The notes under the pieces are model-generated. The model was not told where the DNA came from. It ran no database searches and worked only from the letters and a program-made list of their open reading frames with translations. This document shows, in pieces, positions 977-22,980 of a DNA stretch of 32,000 nucleotides; positions within the stretch are counted from its first letter, which is position 1, and every line of letters begins with the position of its first letter. The position numbers and the translations under genes are program-made. The DNA comes from Candidatus Harpocratesius repetitus (GTDB taxonomy: Archaea > Asgardarchaeota > Lokiarchaeia > Sigyniarchaeales > Promethearchaeaceae): assembly GCA_021498095.1 (NCBI GenBank), contig JAIZWK010000001.1, positions 990,001-1,022,000 on the forward strand, written 5' to 3'.

Positions 977-1921
977 TTAAACATATGGATCAGGAAGTAT
1001 TACATATTTAATAAAACCGTAAGAAGTATCTTCTATCTGTTGATTGAATCGGAGATACAATTTAGTTTTGGTCTGATCGAATCCATATGCGATTCCTATA
1101 TTAAATCCTTTTATTCTCATATCATTCACTAATTGTCCAATAAGTTCATCCATTGCGGTATTATTTTCGATTTTTTTAATTTCTATTGCTAATTTATCAT
1201 CTATAGTGATATCTATATGAGATCTTCCACATAATCTTGGATGTAATTTAACATTTTGAAAATGTTTCGTTAATTCTTTGACAATTGTAGGATTTATTCC
1301 AGTATCTTCATTAGGTAATTCATTTGGAAATAGATCTTTTATTGGGAGATCATTCAAAATTTTAGCCACTTTATTTAATAATGGATCTATAAAGTTAGGT
1401 ATTTCTAATCCTTTCTTTCTCCTATCCGAAATTAACATCTGAATTCCCTTTTGAGAACCAATGTCTTGAAATCTCTCTTGACTGCTTTTAGCAATTCTTT
1501 CAAAAATACTTCTTAACACAGGAGATTCTGATTTTTTTATGTCTTCAAGGATTTCATGAAGAATGTGAAGCGATTTTTGATAAGTTCGATAACATTCATT
1601 ATAAGAATTTGTATTTACTAAATCATTTTGCAATTCAGGAATATCTTGCCATTTTTTAAGCAAGATCAAAATTCCTGATGGAAGATCTGACTCATATTCT
1701 TTTATATCATTTTTCAGCTGTCTGCAGTGTTTATTTATAGTTTCAACAGTATCAGAAATTAAATATATAAGATCTTCAATAATTTTCCAAGTAGGTTCAC
1801 ATGAATGTTTTTTAGCATATTTTTTCTCATAATTGCCAAATAAATTAAATAATTCATTAAATAGCAATTTGACTTTTCTAAACACTTTTTTTTCTATTTC
1901 GATTCGAATTTTATGCTGCAA
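977..1921 (-). CDS. PD-(D/E)XK (restriction-endonuclease-like) nuclease with helical N-terminal region; probably the C-terminal part of a fusion with 2008..3138
   Basis: The C-terminus GRSHIDITIDDKLAIEIKK...DELIGQLVNDMR...AYGFD has the D...E-x-K motif and resembles DpnII/MboI-type REase domains. The start is only TTG, and the frame stays open upstream to 2017. Confidence 0.7.
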   Translation of the reverse strand: MQHKIRIEIEKKVFRKVKLLFNELFNLFGNYEKKYAKKHSCEPTWKIIEDLIYLISDTVETINKHCRQLKNDIKEYESDLPSGILILLKKWQDIPELQNDLVNTNSYNECYRTYQKSLHILHEILEDIKKSESPVLRSIFERIAKSSQERFQDIGSQKGIQMLISDRRKKGLEIPNFIDPLLNKVAKILNDLPIKDLFPNELPNEDTGINPTIVKELTKHFQNVKLHPRLCGRSHIDITIDDKLAIEIKKIENNTAMDELIGQLVNDMRIKGFNIGIAYGFDQTKTKLYLRFNQQIEDTSYGFIKYVILPDPYV

Positions 1922-2007
1922 AATATTGATTTTTAATTCTTCTTTTTCTTCTTCCGAAGTACTAACCGTAATCGCTTTTTCGTTGTAAATAATTACTTTT
2001 CTGGAAT

Positions 2008-3138
2008 CTATTTTTTTTTATAATATTTAATTAAATTAACATAAACGGAATGAATCCATTGGGTTAATAATGAAAAGAAAAATGTTGATGAATTTTTTTT
2101 TTTTATTATTTTGTATACTTTTTCAAATAAATCAAGTAATTTTTCAGATATTACAGGGCAATAAAATGAAATTTGCTCGATATTTTTTAAAACATCTTGG
2201 ATTAAATTTGGTTTATAAATTATCGAATCTGGAGGTAATTCCAAACTCTCATATGTGATAAATCTTTCAAGAATTGGAGAATAAAACTCAATATAACGAT
2301 CCATAGATTTTTGCGTAAGTTTTGCTTTACATGTAATATAAGTAAGGCATCTTAGAATACTCGATTTTAATCCAATATCATTAATTATATTAAATTCAGA
2401 AATTAAATCTACAATCCAATTATCACTATATTTCTCATATTCATATAACAACCAAGATAATCCTTCAAGATAATGGGTTTTTGCAGAGATATTTTTTAAT
2501 TTTTTATAATTTAGCACCAAATTATTTATTAAATTATGATTCCATTCTAATTTTTGATTATTTCTTGAAAAACGTAAATAACATTCACCTAATAATTTTA
2601 TTGAATAACATTTAATACATTCATCATCTTTTTCAAAGCATAATTTTAAGATTTGATTAATGTAAGGTTTAAACAGCTTAAACCATTGGGTACTATATCT
2701 ATCTAATACTGCTAAAGAAAAACAAATTAAATAATTCTCTTTTGACGCTAAATTGTCAAAAAGAGCATTACAAAATTCAGAATCTTCAAGAGAGAATAAT
2801 AAAGGATTATATCGAATTATATGTAAAGCCATTAGATTATTTCTTAAGTTTTTACTATAAAGGTTTATTTTTATAAAATCATATAAAATTTTTTTTAAAT
2901 TTGATTTATTATTAGCGCCAAAAATCATAAAAAGATGTCCTATAAAAATCGGAACTGAATTTTCAGGAAAAGGATCATTGCTATATAAATCTTGAATTTC
3001 CTCCAAGATATTATTTCTAAATTCAGAATTTTTGGAAATTTCTTTTCGGATTTTATCTAATTTTTCTTGAGTTTCGAGAATAATAACATTTTTAGATTTT
3101 TCTAAATATTCATTATAGATTTTTTGAAAAATTTGCAT
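2008..3138 (-). CDS. Alpha-helical (HEAT/ARM-like solenoid) hypothetical protein
   Basis: 376-aa ORF with ATG preceded by GGATGA. It has repeated amphipathic Leu/Ile-rich helices (FSLAVLDRY, YSIKLLGECY, YLEGLSWLL, ILRCLTYI) and no enzyme motif. Confidence 0.65.
   Translation of the reverse strand: MQIFQKIYNEYLEKSKNVIILETQEKLDKIRKEISKNSEFRNNILEEIQDLYSNDPFPENSVPIFIGHLFMIFGANNKSNLKKILYDFIKINLYSKNLRNNLMALHIIRYNPLLFSLEDSEFCNALFDNLASKENYLICFSLAVLDRYSTQWFKLFKPYINQILKLCFEKDDECIKCYSIKLLGECYLRFSRNNQKLEWNHNLINNLVLNYKKLKNISAKTHYLEGLSWLLYEYEKYSDNWIVDLISEFNIINDIGLKSSILRCLTYITCKAKLTQKSMDRYIEFYSPILERFITYESLELPPDSIIYKPNLIQDVLKNIEQISFYCPVISEKLLDLFEKVYKIIKKKNSSTFFFSLLTQWIHSVYVNLIKYYKKK
2011..2019 (-). other. 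A9 homopolymer (possible -1 slippery site, phase-variable tract or indel) at the ORF junction
   Basis: The minus strand reads TAT TAT AAA AAA AAA TAG. One extra A (or a -1 shift) reads K-I-D-S-R-K-V-I-I-Y-N-E-K... without stops into the nuclease ORF. Confidence 0.6.
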
Positions 3139-3194
3139 TTTTATTCATCCTTTTTTTTCCATATTTGTTAGTCATCTATATTTTATTTTTTTTT

Positions 3195-3202
3195 TTGGAT
3201 AT
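3195..3202. repeat. Target-site duplication TTGGATAT (left copy)
   Basis: Identical to 4759-4766 and directly abuts the TIR. Confidence 0.9.
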
Positions 3203-4758
3203 CATTTACTATGTAATTGATCCCTTTTCTTCTAATTAATTGTTGTGGATATAATCACCTCGTAATCTTTCCTCATTCTTCATGAATTTGTAGATAAATA
3301 TAATGGATACCTATGATTTGAGCACATTCCAAGAAATTCACATAATTCCAACTCATTTTCATGTGAATTGTTTTTCTTTATTACATAACGTTGTACTTGC
3401 CAAATATTGTACAAAAAGCACCGTGTACCCATTATATTGAGCCGACTATTCCGATCTTGAATCTTTTGAACAAGTCCTAATCGATTCATTTCACGAAATG
3501 CAATTTCAATATACCAACGTTGACGATAGAGATCTCGGATGTAAATTTCATTACCGTGTAAGGTAGAAACTCCAGATCTGGCTCCGAACATTACGATTAA
3601 GGGAAAGATACGATTAGTAGCGGTGTGAACATCAATCAATTTCTTCCGAAAATCAGAAATAATTTCGTTGAGTTTATATGTTCGTTTTGCAATTAATAGA
3701 AGATCGAAATTAATGAATGAAAACCCCTGATTCTTCACGTATTTTTCCTTCATTGTTCCTTTACAATACCTTTTTCCCTTTCCATTCAAGTAATTTAAAA
3801 TTTTTTGCTTAGTTTGAGCGCATTTTCTTCCCGGCATTATTAATGTTACTTGTTTTGCTTGAAAATATCTTAAAATTCGTTTACGATAAAATCCTCGGTC
3901 TAGAAGCAAATACTTAACTGTGAATCCATTTGAAATCAGAATATGATAAATTTCTTGAAATATGATAAGTTTATCTTGTCTTTTTTTGATCTTAAAATTT
4001 GCAAGCATTTGGTGAAGTTCTCCAGAAATAATAGAAAAACTAAGAGTCCGATGAACTGTTTTACCTATCTTTTTTCCAAAACAATATGGATCATCTATGT
4101 TTTTCTTACAAGGAACATCAGTATAATCCGCGATTAGTTTTAGGTCGGTACCAACAATGTTCAGAGATTTCAGAAGCAAAAGGTGGGCTAAAAGAACAGA
4201 ATTCCAAAATTCTTCAACTAAATCCAACTTTGATAGTGTTTGAAGACAACGGGAAAAAGCGGGTTGATCAGGGAAATATCTTCGTTGTTTTCCATTTGAA
4301 AAATTTGTAATTGAGTATGATTGAAATGAAATTTGGGCATGAAAACACTTTTCTTGTAAAATTTCAGCTGTATGATGTGGTGAAAGTCTTAAAATTTGCA
4401 TACAACATGCAAATAAAACGAAGATGGTGTAGGAAAATCCACTTCGTTTCTGAGGCAATTTTTGGGAAATCACAGGATCTATCACTTTCACAATATCTAA
4501 AAGTAACTGCGGATTAATTAGATCGGGAGTAATTTTTCCAATATCGGTGGCAGCCGATGGATTTCCCCTAAGATTTGTAGACATATCCAAGGGTAAGAAA
4601 GCTTAGCTTTTAAATTATTCCCTTTATCTCTTGAAATAATTATGTGTTTCTCCAATGAAATGAGATTGAAAGTGTATCAAAGAAGTTGAACAAGAAATCG
4701 GGTTTTATCATGATTTCAAGCTCAGAAAAGGCATAAAAAACCAATTACATTGTTAATG
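3203..4758 (-). mobile_element. Intact insertion sequence, IS4 superfamily (IS4/ISH3-like), 1556 bp
   Basis: 17-bp imperfect TIRs CATTTACTATGTAATTG (3203-3219) and CATTAACAATGTAATTG (revcomp of 4742-4758), matching at 15/17. 8-bp direct repeat TTGGATAT at 3195-3202 and 4759-4766. A DDE transposase lies inside. Confidence 0.92.
3280..4584 (-). CDS. DDE transposase, IS4 superfamily
   Basis: LIADYTD (D1), LLLDRGFY (D2), YRQRWYIEIAFR (Y-R-E motif). The ATG at 4584 is preferred over the TTG at 4590 because it aligns with the ATG of the second copy at 14835. Confidence 0.9.
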   Translation of the reverse strand: MSTNLRGNPSAATDIGKITPDLINPQLLLDIVKVIDPVISQKLPQKRSGFSYTIFVLFACCMQILRLSPHHTAEILQEKCFHAQISFQSYSITNFSNGKQRRYFPDQPAFSRCLQTLSKLDLVEEFWNSVLLAHLLLLKSLNIVGTDLKLIADYTDVPCKKNIDDPYCFGKKIGKTVHRTLSFSIISGELHQMLANFKIKKRQDKLIIFQEIYHILISNGFTVKYLLLDRGFYRKRILRYFQAKQVTLIMPGRKCAQTKQKILNYLNGKGKRYCKGTMKEKYVKNQGFSFINFDLLLIAKRTYKLNEIISDFRKKLIDVHTATNRIFPLIVMFGARSGVSTLHGNEIYIRDLYRQRWYIEIAFREMNRLGLVQKIQDRNSRLNIMGTRCFLYNIWQVQRYVIKKNNSHENELELCEFLGMCSNHRYPLYLSTNS

Positions 4759-4766
4759 TTGGATAT
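4759..4766. repeat. Target-site duplication TTGGATAT (right copy)
   Basis: Identical to 3195-3202 and directly abuts the TIR. Confidence 0.9.
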
Positions 4767-5038
4767 ACCCAAATAATCAATTTTTATCTTGTATCTTTGA
4801 TACAAATTATATAAATAATCTTTTTTAATACTAATTTTGCGATTTTTTAAACAATGCCTTAGCTGGAGTAGGTCCACCGTGACCTTGAAAATCGAATAAA
4901 TTAGAATCAAATTTAAAAATCAGTGGTATTTAGGTTGAAAAAAAGATTAAAAAATAAATATCCTCAATATAATGTAAGATTTTTAATAAATAGAAAAAAA
5001 TAATTTATATTATTAATTATCTTGATTATTAGAAATAT

Positions 5039-5605
5039 TCAATTATTATTCTCTAATATAATTCCAAATGTCTGTGCCATCTTTTTTAAAATCCTTTTTG
5101 CAGTAATATCTAGTTTTTCTGCTTCTTTTTCGCTTATTCTCTCTAATTCTTTATTAGTAAAATTCAAAATGTCATACTTGATATATTCCTCTAAATCCAT
5201 CTGATCTGCCTGATCTAAAATAAATTTTGAATGGATATTCAGTTTGGCCTCGTTTTTTATGGATTTTTCTTTTTTCTTTTCATAGTTGGTAGATTGATTT
5301 AAAGAATAGAGTAAAAATAGCGGGTTAAATGCTTGAAAGAAGGCATCTTTACCAGAAAAATGAACTTTCAGAGTTTTTTTTGGAGGTAGAGAATGAGCGG
5401 ATATAGTTTCAATCCAGTCTTTCTTAACCAGACATTCAATATGATAATAGAAAGTTTTCTTATTTCGAAAATAAGCAGGGAATAAAGAGGAAAGTCGTGT
5501 GAAGAATTTTTGATATTGGATGCCTTTAGAATAAGGTACTAAACTTCCTAATATTAAATATTGATGAATCTTTAAATAGGGAGATTTTTCTTGATTTTGA
5601 TCCAT
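5039..5605 (-). CDS. Winged helix-turn-helix (PadR-like) putative transcriptional regulator
   Basis: TFYYHIECLVKKDWIETI...KKTLKVHFSGKDAF resembles the PadR recognition helix and wing (YxxLxxLxxxGxI...KxYxLTxxG). It has an additional acidic helical C-terminus. Confidence 0.55.
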   Translation of the reverse strand: MDQNQEKSPYLKIHQYLILGSLVPYSKGIQYQKFFTRLSSLFPAYFRNKKTFYYHIECLVKKDWIETISAHSLPPKKTLKVHFSGKDAFFQAFNPLFLLYSLNQSTNYEKKKEKSIKNEAKLNIHSKFILDQADQMDLEEYIKYDILNFTNKELERISEKEAEKLDITAKRILKKMAQTFGIILENNN

Positions 5606-5912
5606 TTTCTTATATCACCCGAAATTATTTTCTCATATTACAAGAATTTAATTTCTCATAATATCAGAAATTATTTTCTTATAAAACAAGAAATCGGTAT
5701 TATAAAAATCAATAATTATAAAAAACAATAGAAAAAAAAAGAAGTAGATATAATATCAATATTCAAATTATTATTCTAATTTTTGAGTAATTACTAAATA
5801 GTCTAAGAAAAAAAAATCAAAAAAAGAATTTTCTCATTTTTATTCTATATATTTTTTTTTAAACTTTGATGTATTTTTTGTTCATTAAAATACTTTTATC
5901 ATTCTCTCGATT

Positions 5913-6354
5913 ATGGTATCTCAAATTAAAACAAATATAATATCACATTTTACCAACCCTGCTGAAATTCCCAAACAAAAATTTGAATATCCTTCAGTGA
6001 AGGATATAGATGAGATCGTTGAAAAACACGACCCTCAAGGCAACTATATAGGATTAAAGTCGAAAAAGCGAATTGTTCAAACCAATTTTTACCGCTTTTC
6101 GACTTATGAAGAAGCAGAAGCGATTGCCAAAATTTTTAATACAGTTAATTAAGGAACCTTACCATATCCAGAAATGTAGGATCTGGCTTTTGTTTACGCG
6201 AGTTTCAGAGACTCACCTTATTCTGGTGTTTGTAATCATTAAGATTTCGATTGCTGATGAAGCATATCAGGCTGATGGTAAACAAATCCATGATTTGAAA
6301 GTAAGTATATTACTGCTGATGAATATAAATACACCTATTTCACTATATATTTGA
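5913..6354 (+). pseudogene. Short hypothetical ORF or degraded gene remnant
   Basis: The 79-aa ORF 5913..6152 is followed in frame by protein-like text broken by stops (GTLPYPEM*DLAFVYASFRDSPYSGVCNH*). No family was recognised. Confidence 0.3.
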
Positions 6355-6397
6355 AATAATAAGGGATGCAATTCAATGGTTAATTTTTGAAAAAATA

Positions 6398-7375
6398 TTA
6401 ACTTTTCCTTAATTCTTTTTCTTTAAACATATGTAATGGAATACCTTTAACTTTCACGATTTTTTTTTGTCTATTTGAGAGTTTTTGATATAGCTTTTTG
6501 TTTATACAAATATGTGTTCTTTTTGGAATAAAATGATCTTTGTGAATTATTCCAATTGCTTTTAATGGATTATTTGTCCAATTTTTTAATTTTTCGATAA
6601 AGTCAAAAGTGCATTTTATTTTTTCTTTTAGAGATTTAAATTTTGAATTACTTTTTGCTTCAATAAAAATCACTTCCTTATTTGAATGAATTGTAACTAA
6701 ATCTACTCGATGCTTATCTACTATTTTATTTTTTTCCATCTCTTTTTTGATGTGTTCATCACAGAAAGCTTCAATATTCGTAAGATATTTGTATTGAATG
6801 AGATTTTCATCTAAAAAATATTTTAAAATTCTACAATAAAATTCAATTTTTTCTGTTTTTCCTTTTTTTGATCGTGGAAACTGATTCATTTCTTTTTTTA
6901 CTATTTTTTTCCAGAAATTAATCAATAACTTCTGTAACGATTTAATTTCACTAATAATTTCCAAATTTGCACACTGATTTTTCAGTGAACATGAATTAGT
7001 ACAAATCAATTTGGTCGGACTACTTTGTGAATAAGTTAAAAGGATAGTAAAAGGTTCATTAATAAATTCAAGCAAAAACCCATGTAGAAAAATTAGGAAT
7101 TTATCATCATCTTCAGGAAGGTTTATTGAGCATGGTTTTAATTCTGTTGAATATTTTTTTTTTTTAATAAATCTTATTAAATTAAAATTTATTCTTGAAT
7201 AAAAAGCAGAATAATGATCTGGGTTATCTTCATATATTTTTGAAAGAATCAAATCATAATATTCATCAGATACATATATGTAAATACAATATTCACTAAT
7301 ATAATTTATCCATTCTTCAAGTGAAGAATTTTTATTGACATCAAAAAAACCAGGTATAACAGTTGCATTAATCAT
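6398..7375 (-). CDS. Putative effector: degenerate PIN-like N-terminal domain plus C-terminal PD-(D/E)XK nuclease
   Basis: The C-terminal HRVDLVTIHSNKEVIFIEAKS has the D...E-x-K motif. The N-terminal IYVSDEYYDLI and PEDDDKFLIF...ILLT recall PIN-fold elements. The start overlaps the ATPase stop by 8 nt. Confidence 0.65.
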   Translation of the reverse strand: MINATVIPGFFDVNKNSSLEEWINYISEYCIYIYVSDEYYDLILSKIYEDNPDHYSAFYSRINFNLIRFIKKKKYSTELKPCSINLPEDDDKFLIFLHGFLLEFINEPFTILLTYSQSSPTKLICTNSCSLKNQCANLEIISEIKSLQKLLINFWKKIVKKEMNQFPRSKKGKTEKIEFYCRILKYFLDENLIQYKYLTNIEAFCDEHIKKEMEKNKIVDKHRVDLVTIHSNKEVIFIEAKSNSKFKSLKEKIKCTFDFIEKLKNWTNNPLKAIGIIHKDHFIPKRTHICINKKLYQKLSNRQKKIVKVKGIPLHMFKEKELRKS

Positions 7376-9050
7376 TATTATTCCCTTTTTCTCTATTTTG
7401 TCTAATTAATTTTATAATTTCAGATTGTTCTTTCATTGCTTCATCAAAAAATCCTTTCGGCCAATTTACTATTCCATTTTCATCAATCTTGATTTGCTCA
7501 AATTCCATTCCTTTATTTCCCATTTTTATAAAATATACTGCAATTGAATTTTTAAGTATATGATCATTATCTTCAACAATACGGCGCACTATTCGATTTA
7601 TAATATGCTCACTATGTGTCTCAATTATTGTATATCTTTTTGATAAGCTCATAGCAATAAAAAAATCCGCTAACCGCATTTGTAAATCTGGATGAAGATG
7701 AATTTCAGGTTGTTCTAATATTAAAGTGCTTTTTTCTTTCATCCTGATGCCCTCAATAAGAATTGGAATTACTTGACTTATTCCGAATCCAACATGTTTT
7801 AAATTATATTCATTTATACGAAATCGAAACATTGAATCTGAATTTTGAGGATATTCTGATTGTATATTTCCAAATTTAAAATAATTTGCCCAGAGATTCA
7901 AAATCTCTGAGAGAGTTTTTTTTTTAATTTTTTCAAAATTGTTTTTATTTTGGTGGAAAAATTCATTTATTTCTACTTCTTTTTCACTTTCAAAAATTAA
8001 AGGTGCATTTTCTCCCCTAATTCCAATTTCTAATTTTTGATCTTCACATATATATCTTAAGGAAGGCTCTTCTCTAAGAGGACCAATAAATGACAGATTT
8101 TCTATTTCTACAGTCAATTCGTTTAAGTAATAAGACAATCGGGCGAATATAGAATAAATATCATCTTGAATTTGAGAAGTAAAATCATGAACAAGTAATT
8201 TAAATTCATTTACAGTATTCTTTTTTTTATTTTTTTCATTTTGGTACTTTTCTATTATCTCTTGAATTTTATTTAGTATTTCATTTATTAGTTCATAATC
8301 TTTTTGATTTTTTTCAATTTTTATTAAAGTGCTAATTTCTTCTAGATAGTTATCAAAATCACCTTCGCTAATTTTTTCAGAATTATATAATTTTTGAATT
8401 ATTGAAACCAGACCATTAAATTTTTCATCAATTATTGAATTAATTGTATTTAAACTAAGGTGGAATTTATTAAAAGATAAAAATAAAAAGTTATTAGCTA
8501 TATTAAAAAAACTTTTATAAGGAAAACGTAATTGTCTTTTTTTTAATATTGCTAAATCACCTTTTTTTTTAAGAAATTTGAATTTTCTATCTTCTTCAAT
8601 ATTCCATTTCAAAATATATTTTTTTGGATCAGGAATAAATATATATTTATTTTTTTTATTCATAAAATTCTCAATAAAGTTCAATTCAATTAGATCTATT
8701 TTATCAAAAAGTGTATGGCTTTCTTTTTTTTTATAAACCATTTCAATAATTATGTCTTTATCTTTAGAAAATTTCAAATGCGTCAATTTAAACATCATTT
8801 TTATTGGTTCATCTGGTTTATTTTGCCATGAAATATCTATAAATGAACCTAAACGAACAAATTTCCCATTTAAAATTAAATTTTCGAGCGATTGGTTTTT
8901 TTCTTCTGATTGCTTAAGTAATAATAAAGACTCTAAAATTGATGTTTTTCCTGAACTATTTCTTCCGCAAAAAATTGTAATAGGTTTAATTTTTAATCCT
9001 TCAAGATGCTTAATTCCTTTAAAATTTTGAATTCCTATTTCATCTATCAT
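7368..9050 (-). CDS. ABC-type ATPase (AAA_15/AAA_21-like) with DUF3696-like C-terminus
   Basis: IQNFKGI, Walker A GRNSSGKT, signature-region HVGFGISQ, Walker B LILEQPEIHLHP, H-loop IETHSE, and the C-terminal IDENGIVNWPKGFFDE typical of DUF3696. Confidence 0.88.
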   Translation of the reverse strand: MIDEIGIQNFKGIKHLEGLKIKPITIFCGRNSSGKTSILESLLLLKQSEEKNQSLENLILNGKFVRLGSFIDISWQNKPDEPIKMMFKLTHLKFSKDKDIIIEMVYKKKESHTLFDKIDLIELNFIENFMNKKNKYIFIPDPKKYILKWNIEEDRKFKFLKKKGDLAILKKRQLRFPYKSFFNIANNFLFLSFNKFHLSLNTINSIIDEKFNGLVSIIQKLYNSEKISEGDFDNYLEEISTLIKIEKNQKDYELINEILNKIQEIIEKYQNEKNKKKNTVNEFKLLVHDFTSQIQDDIYSIFARLSYYLNELTVEIENLSFIGPLREEPSLRYICEDQKLEIGIRGENAPLIFESEKEVEINEFFHQNKNNFEKIKKKTLSEILNLWANYFKFGNIQSEYPQNSDSMFRFRINEYNLKHVGFGISQVIPILIEGIRMKEKSTLILEQPEIHLHPDLQMRLADFFIAMSLSKRYTIIETHSEHIINRIVRRIVEDNDHILKNSIAVYFIKMGNKGMEFEQIKIDENGIVNWPKGFFDEAMKEQSEIIKLIRQNREKGNNND

Positions 9051-9446
9051 AGTATTAAATTAAATAAAAAACCCTATAAAATCATTGGAAAATATATCCT
9101 TCATTTTTTTAAATCGGACTTTAGCTAATGCTAAAAGTGAAATTTTTTGATTTTAATATAATAAAGTATACTATAGATATGTTTCTTTAAAAAAATTCTT
9201 CAAAATCTTTCATTTCGCTTCTTTTTTATCCATTATTGCTTATTCATAATGGAAGGTGTTTTTGTTCGATTAAAATTGTTAGAATTGGATCAATGTCTTA
9301 AAAAAATTAGTGAAATTTGAATAATAAGTCATAAATAAATGAAAGTTCAAGATAAAATGAATAATTCGCACCAAAATTTATAGTGGGAGGTATTAATGCT
9401 CAAATTTTTAAAGCCTTGATAATCTTTCATATCTTGGTGATAAAAA

Positions 9447-11406: not shown

Positions 11407-11637
11407 GAGAATTAAGAAGAGAAGCTTGCTTAAGAGTTATTACAATTAATTGAGTGATCAAATTTTCCAAAGATTCTGATGAGGATTTTAAAAAATCACT
11501 GGAATATTTATAAAAAATAATTTAAATAGAGTGGTTTGGTTATAAATTCTTGAGCAAAACTTTTTCAGAAACCATTAGTTTTGATCTTATGTGCAGAATC
11601 GAGTTTTAAAAAAAAAAAATAATGAGGGTGTTGATTT

Positions 11638-12753
11638 ATGTCCGAATCTGAATTAAAAAAAATCCGAGAACAATTAGCCCGCGCTTTGCGTGAGCGTGAT
11701 AGATATCGGAATGAACTGGATCGACTTCAGCGCCGAATTAATAAAATGGCAGTTCCACCATTACTGCTAGCCACCGTATCTCGGATTGTAGATGATGCTT
11801 TTGCGGTCATTCACACCCCATCAGGAAATGATTTTCTGGTTGCCAGCCCGTTTGAATCCTTAAAAGCGGGGGATGTGGTAGGAGTGGATCAACAAACACT
11901 TAAAATCGTGAAAATTTTGCCCCCAAATGTTGATGCATTTGTTGCAGGTATGGAATTAGATGAAAAACCACGAGAAACCTACGAAGATATTGGTGGACTT
12001 GATGATATTATTGTAACTCTGCGTGAAGTTGTTGAATTACCCCTTACTAATCCTGAATTGTTTGAGATAATTGGAATTGAACCGCCAAATGGTGTTCTTT
12101 TAGAAGGGCCTCCTGGAACAGGGAAGACATTGATTGCTCGAGCCGTAGCAAATGCGACCAATGCAACATTCATTAGATTGGTTGGTTCTGAATTAATTCA
12201 AAAGTATATTGGTGAAGGTGCTCGTTTAGTGCGTGAACTGTTTGCTTTGGCACGAGAAAAAGCACCTGCTGTATTGTTTATCGATGAAATTGATGCAGTA
12301 GCATCTAAACGAACGCAAGATTCTCAAGTTTCAGATCGTGAAGTTCAACGAACCTTGATGCAGTTATTGGCTGAAATGGATGGATTTAACGCTTTAGATC
12401 AAGTAAAAATAATAGCCGCAACCAATCGTCCAGATATTTTGGACCCTGCCATTCTCCGTCCTGGTCGTTTCGATCGGATTATTAAGGTCGGATTACCCGA
12501 TGCCAAAGGTAGGGCAGAAATATTCAAAATTCATACCAGAAATATGCCGTTAGAAAATGTTAATCTTGAAAAAATGGCAATGCAATTGGAAAATCTCTCC
12601 GGTGCTGATATAAAATCCATTTGTACCGAAGCAGGAATGAATGCAATTCGATCAAATCGTAAAACGGTAAAAATGGAAGATTTCAAGTTTGCCTATGATA
12701 AATATATCAGAAAAGTACGGGAAAGTCGACCGGCTGCGCCCGTATATTCCTAA
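11638..12753 (+). CDS. pan: Proteasome-activating nucleotidase (AAA+ ATPase)
   Basis: N-terminal coiled coil and OB region, [53 protein letters not shown], and a C-terminal HbYX-type tail (VYS). Confidence 0.95.
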
Positions 12754-12759
12754 AACCTA

Positions 12760-12767
12760 TTTTTTTT
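12760..12767 (+). terminator. Oligo-T tract, possible archaeal terminator of pan
   Basis: T8 run just after the pan stop codon. Weak evidence in such an AT-rich genome. Confidence 0.35.
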
Positions 12768-13053
12768 ACTGATTACTGATTTAGCAGGTAATAATACATT
12801 GTAACTGAAGAAATTAGAGCAAGGTTACGAAATCCAAGAAATTTTGGATGAAATTCGGCAATTTCTATAGTGGAAAATATTCACATTAGTTCTTATGAAG
12901 AATATTTTCTTTTATTTGATAATTACCTCCACGCAAAAATAAAATATGATAGTCTAAATGAGGTGTTAAAGCAGCTGCTTTCCACTCCTTGTTCACGAGG
13001 GGCAAATATCTCCATAAAATATGAAGAATATGCACCTAAAATTGATTTGGTTT

Positions 13054-14403
13054 TCAACCAGTTATTAAATAAAAAACGAATAAATAGAGGATGCATAAGA
13101 AAATATGGAACAAAGCAAAAACCCCGCCAGTTTTTAAGAGTGAGCTATAAGTGAAACCTTCTACCCGATTCTTCTTAGCTAAGTTTAAGGTCATTAAATC
13201 ACAGGTTGCTCCTTGGGGAAGGAGATTGCCACCCAAATTTATACCAAGAAGAAATGCGATTAGGACCACATCTGGAATATTCCCAGGATATAAATGTCGT
13301 AAAATGATAATTAAAAGAACAGCAGTGGGATTACTGGCTAAAAATCCTGAAAATAAACTGGATACTAATAACACGCCGATAGCAGCTATGAAAGTATTAC
13401 TTAAATCAAAGAAAGAAAGCCCGGTTGCTATAAAAGTGAATGTTTCATTGAATTCCATAGCACCAATCAAGATAAAAAGGGCGATAAAAAAGAAAATAAC
13501 CTTAAGATCAACCTTTTTGATGGTTTGCACCAGAGGGATTTGGTTAAGAAGGGTCATTATTATCCCTCCAAAAAAAGCGATTAAATAAGAATATTCTGCA
13601 AAAAAGACAAATCCCGCAATAATTACACCAAAATAAATAGAATTTAGGGTAAAACGCTTGCGATCTCTGATAACTAAGTCAGGGTTCATAATTTCCAAGA
13701 ATAATATACGCTGTTGTTCTGTAGGGGGATTATATTTTCGTAGAACAAGCAGATCAAGCAATACCAAAGTCAAAACTAAAGTAATGATAATGAATGGACC
13801 CATTTTTGCCATAAACCAAATAAGATCAAGCCCGAATTCGGAGGAGATCAAGATATTCTTCGAAGAAGAAAAAGGAGTTAATACCGAACCAATATTAATA
13901 GTGATTGTGATTCCGTAAAGGAATGGTGATGGGTTGATTTTGAGAATACGACAGGCACGAATAACCAAGGGCACGAATAGAACTGCTACAGTGACATCAG
14001 CTATTATTGTTGCCACCAGAGTACTGATGGTGCATATCATGTAGAAAAAGAAACGGTGATTACCTTTAGTGATTTGCAGGGTTTTTACTGCCACCCACTG
14101 GAATATTTTATATTCTTCAGCAACAGCTACGATGATCTGCATTCCTAAAATAAATATTAACGGTTGGAATTCAATCATGTTAAAGAAAATCTGCATCCAA
14201 CTAAGTTCTTGAACCTTTACTGGATCAATCCAACTCAAGAAACTGGCGGCATCTGCTTTTGGAATATAAATACTCGTCAGAACTGCCGCAATAATGGCAC
14301 AGATGAGCGAAACAGCAACATAATCCATATTTTCGCGGCTAAAGACAATAAGGATAGCTACAAACAAGGTGATTTCAATTGCCAGCAAGATGTAATTTAC
14401 CAA
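13054..14403 (-). CDS. ArsB/NhaD/SLC13-type (P-protein/CitMHS-like) ion or anion permease
   Basis: About 11-12 hydrophobic segments, with NIGSVLTPFSSSKNILI and NLGGNLLPQGATCD re-entrant motifs in the two halves. Confidence 0.8.
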   Translation of the reverse strand: MVNYILLAIEITLFVAILIVFSRENMDYVAVSLICAIIAAVLTSIYIPKADAASFLSWIDPVKVQELSWMQIFFNMIEFQPLIFILGMQIIVAVAEEYKIFQWVAVKTLQITKGNHRFFFYMICTISTLVATIIADVTVAVLFVPLVIRACRILKINPSPFLYGITITINIGSVLTPFSSSKNILISSEFGLDLIWFMAKMGPFIIITLVLTLVLLDLLVLRKYNPPTEQQRILFLEIMNPDLVIRDRKRFTLNSIYFGVIIAGFVFFAEYSYLIAFFGGIIMTLLNQIPLVQTIKKVDLKVIFFFIALFILIGAMEFNETFTFIATGLSFFDLSNTFIAAIGVLLVSSLFSGFLASNPTAVLLIIILRHLYPGNIPDVVLIAFLLGINLGGNLLPQGATCDLMTLNLAKKNRVEGFTYSSLLKTGGVFALFHIFLCILYLFVFYLITG

Positions 14404-14421
14404 GTTCTTTCACTTTACTCA

Positions 14422-14660
14422 TTATGGAAAAAAAAAAATTTCTTCAATGATTTTGTTTTGAATATAGAGTGATAATTCTTCAATGAAATGAATATCATAT
14501 ATTTTTATATTTTTTTCTAAATTTTTGTAAATATATTTATGAATAGGATATAAATCTTGGTTGAGAATTACAATACAATTGTCCATATCGGTTTACTCTG
14601 TTTCTTCCCATGATAAATATGAACCATACATAATAACTCCCAAAATCGAATTTTTGTCTA
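14422..14660 (-). pseudogene. Minimal nucleotidyltransferase (MNT, Pol-beta superfamily) remnant
   Basis: The minus strand reads DKNSILGVIMYGSYLSWEETE*TDMDNCIVI...KIYDIHFIEELSLYIQNKIIEE. This is GS...DxD plus a third Asp, with a TAA at 14595-14593. The 5' end is cut by the IS TIR at 14661. Confidence 0.75.
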
Positions 14661-16076
14661 CATTATCAATGTAATTGGTTTTTTATAGATTTTCTGAGCT
14701 TGAAATCATGCTGAAGCTCAATTTTTTGTTTAAATCATATAGTACTTTCCAAATTTCTTTGCATTGAAGAAGTGCATAATTATCTCGAAAGATAAAGGGA
14801 ATAATTTAAAAGATAAGCTTTTTTACCCGTAAATATGTCGACAAATCTTCAGGAAAATCCATCGGTTGGGGCCGATATCGGACAAATTACTCCTAATCAG
14901 ATTAATCCGCAGTTACTTTTAGATATTGCGGAGGTCATAGATCCTGTGATTTCCCAAAAATTGCCTTTAAAACAAAGTGGGTTTTCCTATACGATCTTCG
15001 TTCTGTTTGCATGTTGTATGCAAATATTAAGACTTTCGCCCCGACACACATCAGAAGTTATTCAAAAAAAGTGTTCTCGTGCTCAAATTTCATTTCAATC
15101 CTACTCAGTTACCAAATTTTCAAATGGTAAACAACGGAGATTCTTCCCTGATGAACCTGCTTTTTCTCGATGTTTTCAAACCTTGTCTAAGTTAGATTTA
15201 GTTGAAGCATTTTGGAATTCTGTACTTTTGGCACATTTATTAATTCTCAAATCTCTAAAAATTGTAAGTTCAGATCTAAAGTTAATAGCAGATTACACCG
15301 ATACACCCTGTAAAAAAAATATGCAAGATCCATATTGTTTTGGAAAGAAAGAAGGTAAAACCGTTCATCGTACGCTTAGTTTTTCCGTTATTTCAGGTGA
15401 TTTTCATCATATGATTGCCAATTTTAAAATTAAAAAGCGTCAAGATAAACTTCCTTTGTTTCACAATGTCCATGAGATGCTAGTTTCTAACTGCTTTTCC
15501 ATAAAATATGTTATGCTTGACCGAGGGTTTTATCGTATATGAATACTAAAGTTCTTTTAGCAGAAACATGTGACCGTGATTATGCCTGGAAGAAAATGTG
15601 CGCAGACAAAACAAGAATTCATTCAAGATTTTAATCAAAATAAAATCCGTGAACAAATTACCAGCAGTCGAATATTTCCCCTAATTGATATGATCTGCTC
15701 AAAATCTGGCATAAGAACCCTACACGGCAATGAGAATTATATTCGAGATCTCTATCGCCGAAAATAGTTGATAGAAATTGCATTTCATGAAATGAATCGG
15801 TTAGGCATTGCACAAAAGGTGCAAGATCTCAATATTTGGCTGAATGTTATGTGAATTCGGTGCTTTTTGTACAATATATGGCAGACACAACGATTTCTAA
15901 TAAAAGAAACGATCCTACCGCAGCAGATTTAGAATTGAATTAATTTCTTGGAATGTGCTCAAATCATCGGTATCCATTATATATATCATCCATGAATTGG
16001 AAGGAGTAACATTATCATGGAGAAATGAATAGATTAATCCTATATAGAAGAAAAAGGATCAATTACATAGTGAATG
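14661..16076 (+). mobile_element. Decayed second IS copy of the same family, 1416 bp
   Basis: TIRs CATTATCAATGTAATTG (14661-14677) and CATTCACTATGTAATTG (revcomp of 16060-16076), matching at 14/17. The 5' leader and 3' trailer are homologous to 3203..4758. The flanks (TTTGTCTA / TATTATAT) are not a direct repeat. Confidence 0.88.
14835..16009 (+). pseudogene. IS4-superfamily transposase pseudogene
   Basis: Collinear with 3280..4584. It has stops at 15540-42, shortly after that, and at 15765-67, a further stop and a frameshift near the 3' end, and an in-frame loss of ~46 codons (QTKQ joined to EFIQDF). Confidence 0.9.
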
Positions 16077-16413
16077 TATTATATATACCTAAAATTTCTG
16101 CGTTTCTCGCACTGGATTCTTTAGGTTTCTTCAATTTAGAATATCATAGCTCTTAATAAGCTAGCTAGTTTTAATGATTTATGCATTCTCTATTTTTCCA
16201 ATAAAAATTAATGCATTTCAGCAAAATAGAACATTATTACTTCTTAATAATGATTATGGAGTATATTTTATACTGATATTTACTTATATATTTAAAGAAA
16301 GAATTATATTGAAGAAGATCAATAAATACATGATCAGTGGGAAGAAACACATAAAAATATAAATTTCCACTTTTTCCAAAAAATGATGTTTCATACCATT
16401 AGAGTGATTTACA

Positions 16414-16818
16414 ATGAGTTATAAAATTGAAGAACTTGAAGGAATCGGACCAAAATATGCCGAAGCTTTGAAAAAAATCGGGATTACAAAAACCGATGAG
16501 CTGCTTAAAATAAAGCAAAAAGATGTCGCAGATGTTGCCAAGAAAATCAATGTTCCAAAGAAAAATTTAGATAAATGGATAGAAATTGCGGATCTTATGC
16601 GCATTAAAGGTGTTGCGGAAGAATATAGCGAAGCACTTAATCGTATTGGAATTGATTCAGTGAAGGAATTTAAACATCGAAATGCAGCAAATACATTAAC
16701 CAAGTTAGAAGAATTAAATAGAAAATTCCCTGATATATTACGGAAACTTCCTAACATAGATATGATTAAGGAATGGATTTCTGAAGCGAAAAAACTTCCA
16801 GATCTTGATATTAACTAA
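16414..16818 (+). CDS. DUF4332 family helix-hairpin-helix protein
   Basis: IEELEGIGPKYAEAL and ADLMRIKGVAEEYSEAL HhH repeats; ends LPNIDMIKEWISEAKKLP. Confidence 0.85.
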   Translation: MSYKIEELEGIGPKYAEALKKIGITKTDELLKIKQKDVADVAKKINVPKKNLDKWIEIADLMRIKGVAEEYSEALNRIGIDSVKEFKHRNAANTLTKLEELNRKFPDILRKLPNIDMIKEWISEAKKLPDLDIN

Positions 16819-16845
16819 AGTTCTGGATTTTTTAGATATTTTAGA

Positions 16846-16865
16846 TTTTTTCTTCTTTATTTTTT
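16846..16865 (+). terminator. T-rich tract after the DUF4332 gene, immediately before the intron 5' end
   Basis: TTTTTTCTTCTTTATTTTTT directly precedes GTGCG at 16866. Confidence 0.35.
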
Positions 16866-17680
16866 GTGCGACAGAGTTAAGCTTAGTGGCAAAATTTCAT
16901 ATAATTGGACCGTCTTTTCAGGGGACGCGTGGGACTCATGGCGACTTCAGTTCCAATGATTGGGGCTCGAAAGCATCCATGAGAATGTACCGAAACCATC
17001 AACTCTCGATTGGTGTAGGGCTACCCAGTAAAATTCCATGGCGAATTAGCATGAACTCATGATTGAAGCTTCGTGAATTATACGCTACGAAAGGAGAGTT
17101 GATGTCTATTAGACGACGCAGCCGGACCAAACAGGCAAAAGCGTTAGGAACACATGGTGGAAAATCGTGTGTAACACCTGAACAAATAACGCTCGGAGTA
17201 AAGCGAGCGCCTACCGAATTTGTTATACGTTTACCATTAAGAACTCTGGAAACCTTCATCCCTGCTTGTGGCGAGATGAAGGGTGAGATTGGGAAAAAGC
17301 GAATGCCCCGAGTAATGTTGGGGATAGACCTATTGGTCAATCCGAAAGGATGCCCACTTCTCATGGCTCTACTTGAATTGGACGTATAGGAGACTTCTCC
17401 ATGACCGACATTTGCGAGACGAATCAACCCGTGCAAGGTAGTCAACACCACCAGCATGCCGATATTACATGGATTTTCATGAATCGTGAAGCTGCAAAAC
17501 GTGGTGTGAAGAAGCTCTAACAACAGATATTTCAAGCAACTCGTGATAAAAACTTCCATACGGCTCGCCGACTTAAGAAGCTCTTATTTAAATCATTAAA
17601 TGCAAGATTTCTTGCCGTCCTTACAGTTACGTCCAACCAAGGTCGGTATACTCCAGGTGTTGATGGAATTATTCTTAGCA
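16866..17680 (+). mobile_element. 5'-portion of a group II intron (ribozyme domains I-III and start of domain IV), 3'-truncated
   Basis: Starts with the canonical GTGCG exactly where the DNA becomes GC-richer. Hairpins: CGCTCG/CGAGCG 17190-17209, CCTTCATC/GATGAAGG 17253-17282, GACC-TATT-GGTC 17327-17338, TCC-GAAA-GGA 17341-17350. An RT N-terminus follows. No domain V was seen. The 3' boundary is approximate. Confidence 0.85.
17401..17680 (+). pseudogene. Group II intron-encoded RT/maturase, N-terminal (RVT_N/RT0) fragment
   Basis: AGGAG then ATG at 17401: ...ITWIFMNREAAKRGVKKL*QQIFQATRDKNFHTARRLKKLLFKSLNARFLAVLTVTSNQGRYTPGVDG. This matches the RVT_N pattern (KLQxRIF...ARRLQxLL...AVxxVT...TPGVDG). 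TAA at 17518-17520 stands where Gln is expected. Confidence 0.9.
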
Positions 17681-17870
17681 ATTACATCTTTTTCTTTTTT
17701 TTTAATAATTATTAAAAAATTCTATAAATGGATTCAAAATATTATATTTATTTATCGGTCTTAATTTTTTTAACTATTTTTTTTTTCAAATAAGATGGAT
17801 TTCTTTTATAATTGACTTTATTGGATATATAATTATATCTTTTGCTGGATTTCATATTTTTGGTATATTT

Positions 17871-18386
17871 ATGAATGAAAAATTAGAACAAAAAAAAAGA
17901 ATGAAAATATTAAACTTAAAATATATGATGACTTTTTTAATATTTGCAATTATATCTGATATTTTCATTCCATCTGTAAGATTTGGCATAAATATTTCAT
18001 ACGTTCTTTTATCATTGTCTACAAATATCTTCTTTTTAACAATGCTTTTTTCTTTTTATGAATTAGGTTATGAAAATAGGTTTGTTGAAGAGATTGGAAA
18101 AAATACATTGATTTTATTTATTTTTTCTATATTATTTGATAAATATATAACCATAATTTGGAAAGACTTAAATTTCCTTCAAATGAACAAAGATCCAAAA
18201 TTGTATTACAAAAATTTATTACCCGCTTTTCAAATCTTAATCGTATTAGTGCTAAAAATTGTATTGCTATTGATTATTTTTTATTTATCACAAAAATTTC
18301 CAGTCTTAACTAAAAAGATCAAGAAAAGAATCCAAAATGAAAATCAGAATATTACTACGCTTTCGCAATCAAAAGTATCCTTATAA
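17871..18386 (+). CDS. Hypothetical integral membrane protein (~4 TM)
   Basis: 171-aa ORF with four hydrophobic segments; it overlaps the permease start by 50 nt. Confidence 0.6.
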   Translation: MNEKLEQKKRMKILNLKYMMTFLIFAIISDIFIPSVRFGINISYVLLSLSTNIFFLTMLFSFYELGYENRFVEEIGKNTLILFIFSILFDKYITIIWKDLNFLQMNKDPKLYYKNLLPAFQILIVLVLKIVLLLIIFYLSQKFPVLTKKIKKRIQNENQNITTLSQSKVSL

Positions 18387-21063: not shown

Positions 21064-21065
21064 TA

Positions 21066-21926
21066 ATGAATGGCCTGCAAATAAAAAATGTCTTTTTCAT
21101 TTATAAAACCAAATATATTGACGTTGTTGCCTTAAAAGGTGTAAATATGACACTTTCCCCTGGAGAAATTACAGTCATCATGGGACCTTCGGGTAGTGGA
21201 AAAACCACCTTATTAAATTTACTAAATGGAGAAATAAGACCTTCTTCTGGGCAGATAATATATAATGATCAAATTTATGAAAATTTTTCCTTTAGGGATA
21301 TTCAGAATTTTCGAAAAACTAAAATTGGATACATGAGACAGAAAGAAAATTTATTTAATTTCTTGACAATTAATGATAATTTCCAATTAATCGCTGATTT
21401 AATTCATCGAAAGATTTCGAAGGAAGAAATAATTGAGCATTTACAAAAATTTGATCTGGGAGAAAAAATCAATGTATTTCCTGATCAATTAAGCCAAGGA
21501 CAACAGCAAAAAATTGCATTCCTTTCAATCTTAATAAAAAAACCTGAAATTATATTATTTGATGAACCCACAGGGAATTTAGATGCAGAATCAAGAGATG
21601 ATTTTATTAGAATGATTGAAAATTATAAAGAACAGGATAATGATACAATATTTGTAATAGTGACTCATGATCCTGCATTTATTGCGATCGCAGATCGAGT
21701 TTATTTTCTGAAAAATGGAAAAGTTGATACACATCTTGATAAAGCTGAAATTATTATGAATAAAACTATAAATCTTGAAAAAAATATTCCTAATTTTGGT
21801 GTAAATGCCTTTAATTTAACGATATCAAAAGAAGATTTATCTAGAATCGAAACTTCAATAGAAGTTATCCAAAATTTCCTTAGAAAACTTGAAAAAAAAC
21901 ATATGAAAAACCCAGAATCTACTTAA
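21066..21926 (+). CDS. ABC transporter ATP-binding protein (LolD/MacB-like)
   Basis: VVALKGVNM, GPSGSGKT, LSQGQQQK, ILFDEPTGNLD, VTHD. The ATG at 21066 (2 nt after the permease stop) is preferred over the track start at 20952. Confidence 0.92.
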   Translation: MNGLQIKNVFFIYKTKYIDVVALKGVNMTLSPGEITVIMGPSGSGKTTLLNLLNGEIRPSSGQIIYNDQIYENFSFRDIQNFRKTKIGYMRQKENLFNFLTINDNFQLIADLIHRKISKEEIIEHLQKFDLGEKINVFPDQLSQGQQQKIAFLSILIKKPEIILFDEPTGNLDAESRDDFIRMIENYKEQDNDTIFVIVTHDPAFIAIADRVYFLKNGKVDTHLDKAEIIMNKTINLEKNIPNFGVNAFNLTISKEDLSRIETSIEVIQNFLRKLEKKHMKNPEST

Positions 21927-21957
21927 AATCACAAACATATTCACTTACATAAGAATA

Positions 21958-22980
21958 ATGACTACTATTATCACTCATTTAGATGCAGATGGAGTGTGTT
22001 CTGCTTCCTTAGTTCGAATGGTTAAAGAATTTCACAATAGTTACGTTTATTTCAGCCATCCTGCTGGTTTACTTCATGATTTACGCGTTATTCCAAAAGA
22101 TGATTTAATTATATGTGATATTGCCTTAGATCAGCGTAGTTATCTTGAAATTTTTCAGATTTTTGAAGAATTCACAAAAGAATATTCGATAATTTATATT
22201 GATCATCATGCCCAACCAGAAGGTATGCCAAATAAAGTGATAAATGTGCATGATCCCAATGTTTCGGCCACTGAGTTAACATATCGTTATTTTTATCATC
22301 AATTACCAAAGAGAGCAGATTTCATTGCCTTGCTTGGTTCAATTTGTGATTACTTAGATGATAGTCCTTTAATGCAACGTTTGATGCATCATTATGAGCG
22401 GCGTACACTCTTTTTAGATGCAGGTTTACTTGCCCAAGGCTTAAAGAAATACGGGAAGAAAGCCCATTATGAAAAATTGCGTGATTTAATTAAAGCGTTT
22501 AGTCATGGAAAATCTCCATGCGATATTCCAGAATTAACTCAAGCAGCAATTAATGCAACAAAGTCGGATAATTCTAAGCGTTCTTTAATTCTTTCACTCT
22601 ATCACACCGAAAAAAACATTGCTTGGATTCAAGATCCTCCTTCCATGTCGTATTCTAAGATCGCTCACTGGATCATGGGTGATTCTGGAAAGCATCTTGG
22701 ATTAGCCATTCGGACATTGAATTCAAAACGATTATTGGTGGATATCACCATAAGGGGTTGGCGGAAAATAGATCTGCGAAAGTTTATTCCTGAAATAGCA
22801 ATGAAATTGGGAGGAAGTGCCGGTGGGCATGCAAATGCCGTAGGTGTGCGACTTCCTCAGAAGAAATGTCAACTTTTCTTGAGAATGTTGGATAATCATC
22901 CCATTTTTTCAACATTGGAACCAATTGCCCAAATAGATGATTTAATACCCCTTTCTTTCTCTAATAATTTAATCATGTGA
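21958..22980 (+). CDS. DHH/DHHA1 family phosphoesterase (RecJ/NrnA-like)
   Basis: HLDADG, CDIA, IDHH, SATEL and the C-terminal GGHANAVG. Confidence 0.9.
   Translation: MTTIITHLDADGVCSASLVRMVKEFHNSYVYFSHPAGLLHDLRVIPKDDLIICDIALDQRSYLEIFQIFEEFTKEYSIIYIDHHAQPEGMPNKVINVHDPNVSATELTYRYFYHQLPKRADFIALLGSICDYLDDSPLMQRLMHHYERRTLFLDAGLLAQGLKKYGKKAHYEKLRDLIKAFSHGKSPCDIPELTQAAINATKSDNSKRSLILSLYHTEKNIAWIQDPPSMSYSKIAHWIMGDSGKHLGLAIRTLNSKRLLVDITIRGWRKIDLRKFIPEIAMKLGGSAGGHANAVGVRLPQKKCQLFLRMLDNHPIFSTLEPIAQIDDLIPLSFSNNLIM

Follow-up and report, generated by a model that had tools for sequence, protein, structure and literature searches.

A two-gene cassette of an NsnB-type ABC ATPase and an orphan protein bearing a PD-(D/E)XK-type motif in the Asgard archaeon Candidatus Harpocratesius repetitus

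Introduction

Several described phage defense systems pair an ATP-binding cassette (ABC) ATPase with an effector protein. Menshen (Millman 2022; Li et al., NAR 2025, PMC12065111) is encoded by three genes, for NsnA (ParB-DUF262 plus ParBDB), for NsnB (an ABC ATPase with a DUF3696 tail), and for NsnC, which joins an N-terminal inactive PIN domain to a variable C-terminal effector (PMC12065111). We analyzed a 32,000-nucleotide stretch of the genome of the Asgard archaeon Candidatus Harpocratesius repetitus (GenBank assembly GCA_021498095.1, contig JAIZWK010000001.1, positions 990,001 to 1,022,000 of the forward strand). This whole stretch is referred to here as the window, and coordinates are positions within it. 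It carries a gene for an ABC ATPase of the NsnB type (P0001) and, directly downstream, a gene for an orphan partner protein (P0002), with no gene for an NsnA.

Published AlphaFold 3 (AF3) models have two DUF3696 helices of NsnB clamping the N-domain of NsnC, and canonical Menshen requires NsnA (PMC12065111). The 15 C-terminal families listed for NsnC, among them BECR, Toprim, PLD, DUF4160, PB-UF1, and DUF2103-like, include none of the PD-(D/E)XK type; the survey that found them was seeded with DUF262, and its distribution analysis reports bacteria alone, across 27 phyla (PMC12065111). Two further systems are close in layout. HEC-03 (ATPase plus PIN protein) and HEC-02 (ATPase plus a NERD protein, of the PD-(D/E)XK superfamily) protect against phage, both genes being needed in each, and neither has a DUF262 component (Payne et al., bioRxiv 10.1101/2024.01.29.577857).

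A preliminary description of the window regarded the combination of its two genes as one that could not be recognized. That view did not hold, because the best-scoring model for the ATPase is Menshen NsnB, and NsnB-NsnC, HEC-03, and HEC-02 are all described pairs of an ATPase and an effector. What is new here is the partner family, a PD-(D/E)XK-type motif beyond the 15 NsnC families, the absence of NsnA, and the Asgard host. The pair is probably a self-contained conflict cassette of the Menshen/HEC-03 kind, most likely antiviral, in which the ATPase would gate a nuclease.

Results and Discussion

The ATPase is of the NsnB type

The ATPase gene (7368 to 9050, minus strand) encodes 560 amino acids, and its product is an NsnB-type (Menshen) DUF3696 ABC ATPase. 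Three Pfam families matched above their cut-offs, AAA_15 (1.2e-24), AAA_21 (8.7e-13), and DUF3696 (3.3e-9). Among PADLOC models NsnB was the best match (8.6e-64), followed by HEC-03B (6.2e-48), PDC-M55A (6.9e-39), and AriA (1.9e-26). NCBIfam models gave matches at the level of the Walker A motif alone, far under the curated cut-offs. The gene is the sole copy in the host genome.

The nucleotide-binding motifs were compared in an alignment of the ATPase with 11 relatives (12 sequences). The preliminary description took all of them to be intact, which is correct for two. The Walker A motif GRNSSGKTS (residues 29 to 37; 8940 to 8966, minus strand) is canonical and follows an invariant family pattern, GxNSxGK[ST]S, in which G29, N31, S32, G34, K35, and S37 do not vary; the H-loop ETHSxH is likewise canonical and invariant. 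The other three depart from the canonical form, and the departures are themselves invariant. The Q-loop position holds an arginine (IGPLREEPS), and the signature motif is GFGISQ in the host protein and GFGxSQ across the family. In the Walker B motif LILEQPE (residues 443 to 449; 7704 to 7724, minus strand) E446-Q447 replaces Asp-Glu, the family sequence being LEQPEIHLHP with Glu-Gln where ABC ATPases carry Asp-Glu. A glutamine at the position of the catalytic glutamate of an ABC ATPase usually allows ATP binding and slows hydrolysis, and a Glu-Gln Walker B with slowed hydrolysis would suit a switch. The departures are of the same kind as those of NsnB (arginine in the Q-loop, a GxG signature, and a non-canonical Walker B), for which EN in place of DE, R in place of Q, and GxG in place of SGG have been published (PMC12065111).

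The DUF3696 segment occupies residues 498 to 542 (7425 to 7559, minus strand), as delimited by the match to Pfam PF12476. Its tail, NWPxxFFD...EQ, has invariant W530, P531, F534, F535, D536, E541, and Q542, and AF3 models of NsnB place the corresponding part against the effector N-domain (PMC12065111). The ATPases of the archaeal clade (P0001 and P0004 to P0006) are 50 to 70 residues longer than their bacterial relatives. Alignment places the extra length in the variable stretch that separates the two nucleotide-binding lobes; in the host protein this insert is rich in lysine, isoleucine, and asparagine.

The two genes are kept together, and apparently coupled, in four loci

The partner gene (6398 to 7375, minus strand) encodes 325 amino acids and belongs to a new family with four members that no model matches. 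An exhaustive phmmer search of 1.8 billion representative sequences yielded three homologues in total, and word-indexed searches, with the host protein and with the four-sequence profile (E up to 1), added no further one. The homologues come from Promethearchaeum syntrophicum (P0003, 44% identity; gene at 2544111 to 2545088 of CP042905.2), from a marine sediment contig of the Loki's Castle type (P0123), and from a Logan contig (P0124). Their genes lie directly downstream of those for the three closest relatives of the ATPase (P0005, P0004, and P0006; 45 to 50% identity), so the pair is conserved as a unit in four loci. Outside the two genes and about 40 nucleotides of promoter these loci share no homology, and tblastx comparison of all four revealed no third conserved gene. 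Among 400 genomes of the Asgard phylum the partner was found in the host genome and in Promethearchaeum, along with two stop-containing fragments at an E of about 1e-4.

The basic layout is as the preliminary description gave it, with the reading frames of 560 and 325 amino acids overlapping by 8 nucleotides. The ATPase stop codon and the partner start codon share the sequence ATGATTAA (7368 to 7375, minus strand), and the overlap is identical in one homologous locus (L003). In a second locus (L002) the junction is TAATG, provided that the start is the methionine aligned with those of the other three, and in the remaining locus (L001) 4 nucleotides separate stop from start. This arrangement suggests that the two genes are translationally coupled. 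An alignment of the regions upstream of the four ATPase genes contains a single conserved block, a TATA-like, T-rich element that lies at the same position in each. At the host locus it reads TTTTATA (9075 to 9081, minus strand) and is centered about 28 nucleotides before the ATG, which would suit the promoter of a leaderless archaeal transcript, with the caution that the upstream region is AT rich and that chance matches are common there. A run of six T residues (6390 to 6395, minus strand), two bases past the partner stop codon, is a candidate archaeal terminator.

No NsnA is encoded at the locus. The preliminary description saw neither a long open reading frame (ORF) nor a DUF262 ORF upstream of the ATPase gene, and both points stood: the 396 nucleotides concerned (9051 to 9446) contain no ORF of at least 60 amino acids, and the next gene beyond them is a divergent DUF3795 gene. 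DUF262 (PF03235) had no match in the whole 4.36-Mb single-contig host genome, and control genomes did match.

The partner has a likely nuclease domain and a Cys/His-bearing N-domain

No match to the partner was found in Pfam (E up to 10), PADLOC, NCBIfam, PHROGs, or PDB sequence profiles, and none of the four family members matched a PADLOC model, including those for NsnC and HEC-03A. The best Pfam lead for the family was HSDR_N_2, at 0.057 and in one member. The initial judgment that the partner is neither a TOPRIM nor an HNH protein agrees with these searches, in which neither kind was matched in Pfam or PADLOC.

The C-terminal domain (residues 195 to 325; 6401 to 6793, minus strand) carries a motif of the PD-(D/E)XK type. 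The D...EAK motif first reported for the host protein is present in all four members, in which E212, H222-R-V-D225, and E239-A-K241 are invariant. The best-conserved block of the four-sequence alignment, HRVDLxTxHSxxExxFIEAKSxSxFxSL, together with E212 upstream, has the classical E...D...ExK arrangement, and its putative catalytic core from D225 to K241 reads VDLVTIHSNKEVIFIEAK (6653 to 6703, minus strand). The domain was compared by hhalign with an alignment of Mrr_cat sequences from related genomes, with column-shuffled alignments as controls. The score of 18.1 (P of 0.02) was reached by none of the 60 shuffles, and the register placed D225 on the catalytic aspartate, E239-A-K241 on (Q/E)xK, and GIIH on the next strand. 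Matches to the Hjc family in related genomes were too few for a comparison alignment of the same kind. In language-model features the ten nearest named clusters all belonged to the PD-(D/E)XK clan (HinfI, PDDEXK_3, PDDEXK_11, PDDEXK_18, Hjc, ApaLI, MunI, and Mrr_cat were among them), with values of 0.83 to 0.86 that serve as leads only. Taken from the motif and these comparisons, it is quite likely that the C-terminal domain is a PD-(D/E)XK nuclease.

The N-terminal domain (residues 1 to 170; 6866 to 7375, minus strand) carries invariant C82, H98, C129, and C135 in the four-sequence alignment, and it was compared by hhalign with the N-domain of a 12-member family of bacterial partner proteins, described below. 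The two N-domains align colinearly from residue 1. The similarity is weak (score of 26.4, P of 0.004) and was reached by none of 200 column shuffles. The Cys and His residues coincide in position with a partly conserved c...h...C.C pattern in the bacterial family, and the four residues may form a structural zinc site. A language-model search with the N-domain returned no usable match. The PIN-like label that the preliminary description gave the module is conjectural.

Relation to Menshen, HEC-03, HEC-02, PARIS, and Septu

Menshen is among the described systems closest to the pair. The ATPase scores best against NsnB, with the same DUF3696 tail and like motif departures, and the protein encoded directly downstream, by an overlapping or abutting gene, is like NsnC a two-domain protein of about 300 amino acids, the N-domain being variable and the C-domain nuclease-like. 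However, neither the locus nor the host genome has an NsnA or DUF262 gene. The partner matches no NsnC model, and its PD-(D/E)XK-type motif falls outside the listed effector families. The host is an Asgard archaeon, whereas the published survey is bacterial.

With HEC-03 the pair shares a two-gene layout, the lack of DUF262, and a homologous ATPase, although HEC-03B scores below NsnB. In HEC-03 the partner consists of one PIN domain, about 160 amino acids long and with conserved acidic residues (VVDTNV...), in contrast to the two-domain host partner of 325 amino acids, which has no match to HEC-03A and no invariant aspartate in its N-domain. The DUF1156 and helicase neighbors of HEC-03-type loci are also missing at the host locus. 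HEC-02 offers a precedent for an ABC ATPase paired with a separate protein of the PD-(D/E)XK superfamily, both being required. However, HEC-02A is not among the 25 best PADLOC models for the host ATPase, and the partner has no Pfam NERD match, the sole sign of NERD being a language-model lead at 0.85.

The resemblance to PARIS and Septu is one of principle, in that an ABC ATPase oligomer holds a nuclease that is freed or activated on infection, and the PARIS ATPase model AriA does match the host ATPase. But the effectors of those systems are a TOPRIM protein (AriB) and an HNH protein (PtuB), their ATPases lack DUF3696, and the matches of AriA and PtuA to the host ATPase are much weaker than that of NsnB.

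Related two-gene pairs in bacteria

The gene neighborhoods of the ATPase family were examined in 80 sampled genome loci that encode a relative of the host ATPase, among which two classes of pairs could be distinguished. Class B comprises 42 loci in which the ATPase is mostly 450 to 480 amino acids long and the partner 156 to 180. All 20 class B partners scanned matched PADLOC HEC-03A; among the large upstream ORFs scanned, 5 of 20 matched DUF1156 and several a helicase (ResIII, SNF2, or DEAD). We read class B as HEC-03 itself, embedded in Hma as has been described for that system. Among the upstream ORFs of related loci, a DGxQR motif was seen in only one, at L035, a locus of the HEC-03 type.

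Class A comprises 21 of the sampled loci and three further ones (L005 to L007). The ATPases are 483 to 645 amino acids long, apart from one short outlier (L049), and the partners, of 270 to 390 amino acids, were matched by neither Pfam nor PADLOC models. Six large upstream ORFs were scanned and none was a DUF262 gene, and 8 of the 21 loci have no same-strand ORF of at least 60 amino acids just upstream. In the five genomes checked, DUF262 genes occur either on different contigs or at a great distance. Two-gene pairs of this class are widespread in bacteria and are missed by the partner models of PADLOC v2. One such pair, of the ordinary bacterial type, lies beside an Eco57I-type enzyme in a metagenome-assembled genome from the Promethearchaeota (L005).

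Twelve class A partners form one family, with the N-terminal pattern fDPxxlfIS...C..P...F.kl.h...C.C and a C-terminus that, as read by eye, carries a RelE-like RIHY...H pattern (yRxRV...RIHY...F..YYg.GEHD). Class A agrees with the host pair in gene order and coupling; its ATPases are the closest bacterial relatives of the host ATPase, and the N-domain of its main partner family is the one that is colinear with that of the host partner. The differences lie in the partner proteins, because the main class A family ends in a RelE-like pattern rather than in D...ExK, and class A partners are not detectably related to the host partner by HMMER at database scale. Judged by ATPase similarity and partner size, the host pair can be placed in class A, which is uncatalogued, with its partner as a separate family of four members.

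Genomic setting

The pair is an accessory element in a strain-specific region of low G+C content that contains an insertion sequence. G+C content is 22 to 31% in the left 10 kb of the window, compared with 32 to 37% in the adjacent segment from 10 to 18 kb. An ORF of 436 amino acids that matches the transposase family DDE_Tnp_1 (1.9e-7; 3280 to 4590, minus strand) marks an insertion sequence within the low-G+C segment, about 1.8 kb downstream of the pair, and this was all that Pfam and PADLOC scans of positions 977 to 9050 identified apart from the pair itself. Two genomes of the same genus (87% and 92% complete) gave no match to the partner gene, which was found in 1 of 13 other genomes of the same family. 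One of the same-genus genomes (G136) has nothing in common with the window to the left of position 11476. Near two of the homologous loci there are integrase genes, accompanied by an HpaII restriction-modification pair in one (L002) and by DNA methyltransferases in the other (L001).

Other genes of the window can be noted in passing. Two adjacent minus-strand ORFs of 314 and 376 amino acids (977 to 1921 and 2008 to 3138) have no Pfam or PADLOC match. A minus-strand ORF of 188 amino acids (5039 to 5605) has a weak winged-helix match (UBR1-like_wing, 0.0027), and at the other three loci it is not conserved next to the pair. To the right, an AAA gene (11476 to 12753) and a DHH gene (21937 to 22953) are directly adjacent in G136. 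The 9.2-kb stretch from 12754 to 21936 is therefore absent there and constitutes a second variable segment; it contains a CitMHS transporter gene, a DUF4332 gene, an ORF of 908 amino acids of no known kind, and an ABC_tran ATPase gene.

Proposed mechanism

If the pair is a conflict cassette of the Menshen/HEC-03 kind, the NsnB-type ATPase would oligomerize, and its C-terminal DUF3696 helices would grip the N-domain of the partner and so silence the PD-(D/E)XK-type nuclease at the partner's C-terminus. Because there is no NsnA/DUF262 sensor, the ATPase itself would have to sense the trigger, and the lineage-specific variable insert is the likely site. With its Glu-Gln Walker B motif the ATPase is probably an ATP-binding switch with slow turnover. 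Switching would free or activate the nuclease, which would then cut nucleic acid; the restriction-like motif points to DNA as the substrate. The preliminary description had proposed an ATPase sensor that gates a nuclease toxin. The part of that proposal that can be seen is a conserved and coupled pair of an ATPase and a nuclease-like protein in four loci, whereas the binding of the partner, the trigger, the gating, the nuclease activity and its substrate, and the role in defense are what we infer.

Several results weigh against this interpretation. Predicted structures were too poor for use, with a mean predicted local distance difference test (pLDDT) value from AlphaFold2 of 48.7 for the full-length partner (from a four-row alignment) and of 49.7 for residues 188 to 325. 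Foldseek against the PDB and a wide VIA-align search, both with the low-confidence full-length model, returned rows no better than chance, namely acetyltransferases and helical bundles (Z at most 5.6). The four partner sequences are 40 to 46% identical and 27% of all their columns are invariant, so invariance of the motif is by itself weak evidence, and the P value of the Mrr_cat similarity is no lower than 0.02. In the N-domain there is no invariant aspartate, and hhalign detected no similarity to the HEC-03A PIN profile (P of 0.1). In addition, none of the 10 neighboring ORFs matches a PADLOC model. The defense island of the preliminary description is thus not what is seen, which is a strain-specific region with a low G+C content and a DDE transposase. 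A complex prediction for the ATPase and its partner, with a score of 0.01, counts neither way.

A broader proposal, which can be put forward only tentatively, is that pairs of a DUF3696 ATPase and a two-domain partner of about 300 amino acids without NsnA are a widespread, uncatalogued type of defense, distinct from Menshen and HEC-03, with the insert as the sensor. The Asgard branch would then have exchanged an RNase-like tail for a DNA-cutting PD-(D/E)XK domain, and the N-domain may bind zinc.

Alternative explanations

One possibility is that the pair is a selfish module, like a toxin-antitoxin system, that stabilizes a mobile element or serves in competition between elements, with the ATPase restraining a toxic nuclease so that loss of the cassette kills the cell. 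The strain-specific region of low G+C content with its DDE transposase, the integrase genes near two of the homologous loci, and the very patchy distribution of the pair would all be in keeping with such a role, as would the toxicity noted for expression of HEC-03 in Escherichia coli (bioRxiv 10.1101/2024.01.29.577857). However, the nearest characterized relatives, Menshen and HEC-03, protect against phage, antitoxins are typically far smaller than this ATPase, and no element borders or repeats were identified at the host locus. The mechanism would also overlap with that of defense by abortive infection. We regard addiction as an unlikely primary role.

The D...EAK residues might instead be a structural or binding patch in a non-enzymatic partner, which would act as an adaptor or sensor for an effector that is encoded elsewhere or absent. 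Inactive restriction endonuclease domains act as DNA binders in Menshen NsnA, where the catalytic motif is missing (PMC12065111). The host partner, in contrast, retains the full E...D...ExK set, in register with the catalytic residues of Mrr_cat and with a score above all shuffles. The gene in the same position encodes the effector in related systems, and there is no third conserved gene. An adaptor role is rather improbable on these grounds, even though no nuclease model was matched significantly, the low-confidence AlphaFold2 models leave the fold unproven, and invariance comes cheaply among only four sequences.

A third explanation is that the pair is what remains of a three-gene Menshen system after decay and loss of NsnA, and is no longer functional, as might be supposed from NsnB being the best model for the ATPase and from the requirement of canonical Menshen for NsnA. 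Decay is difficult to reconcile with two intact ORFs and with a two-gene layout, promoter element, and stop/start coupling that are kept in four loci at 40 to 50% identity. Furthermore, 21 of the 80 sampled loci consist of an ATPase and a partner of about 300 amino acids, with no upstream DUF262 among the six large ORFs scanned, and in the five genomes checked the DUF262 genes are not adjacent. This explanation is very improbable. A housekeeping role in DNA repair or chromosome maintenance, with an SMC/Rad50/RecF-like ATPase assisted by a nuclease, is hardly credible, because the weak N-terminal matches to RecF, Rad50, and SMC_N models span the Walker A region only and lie far under the curated cut-offs, the pair was not found in same-genus genomes, and the best-scoring models are those of defense ATPases.

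Implications

As a conflict cassette of the Menshen/HEC-03 kind, the pair adds incrementally to a system logic that is already known. It is most likely a variant rather than a new type of system, one without NsnA and with an orphan, probably DNA-cutting effector. PADLOC v2 recognizes the ATPase alone, and pairs of this kind therefore go uncalled in archaeal and in many bacterial genomes. The orphan partner family numbers four among 15 billion proteins, an example of the speed at which such effectors diversify.

If the proposed function is correct, an NsnB-effector pair can work without a DUF262 sensor, and a system regarded as acting chiefly on RNA would gain a DNA-type effector. Asgard archaea are the closest prokaryotic relatives of eukaryotes, and the family of ATPase-gated nucleases to which Menshen and HEC-03 belong would extend to them.

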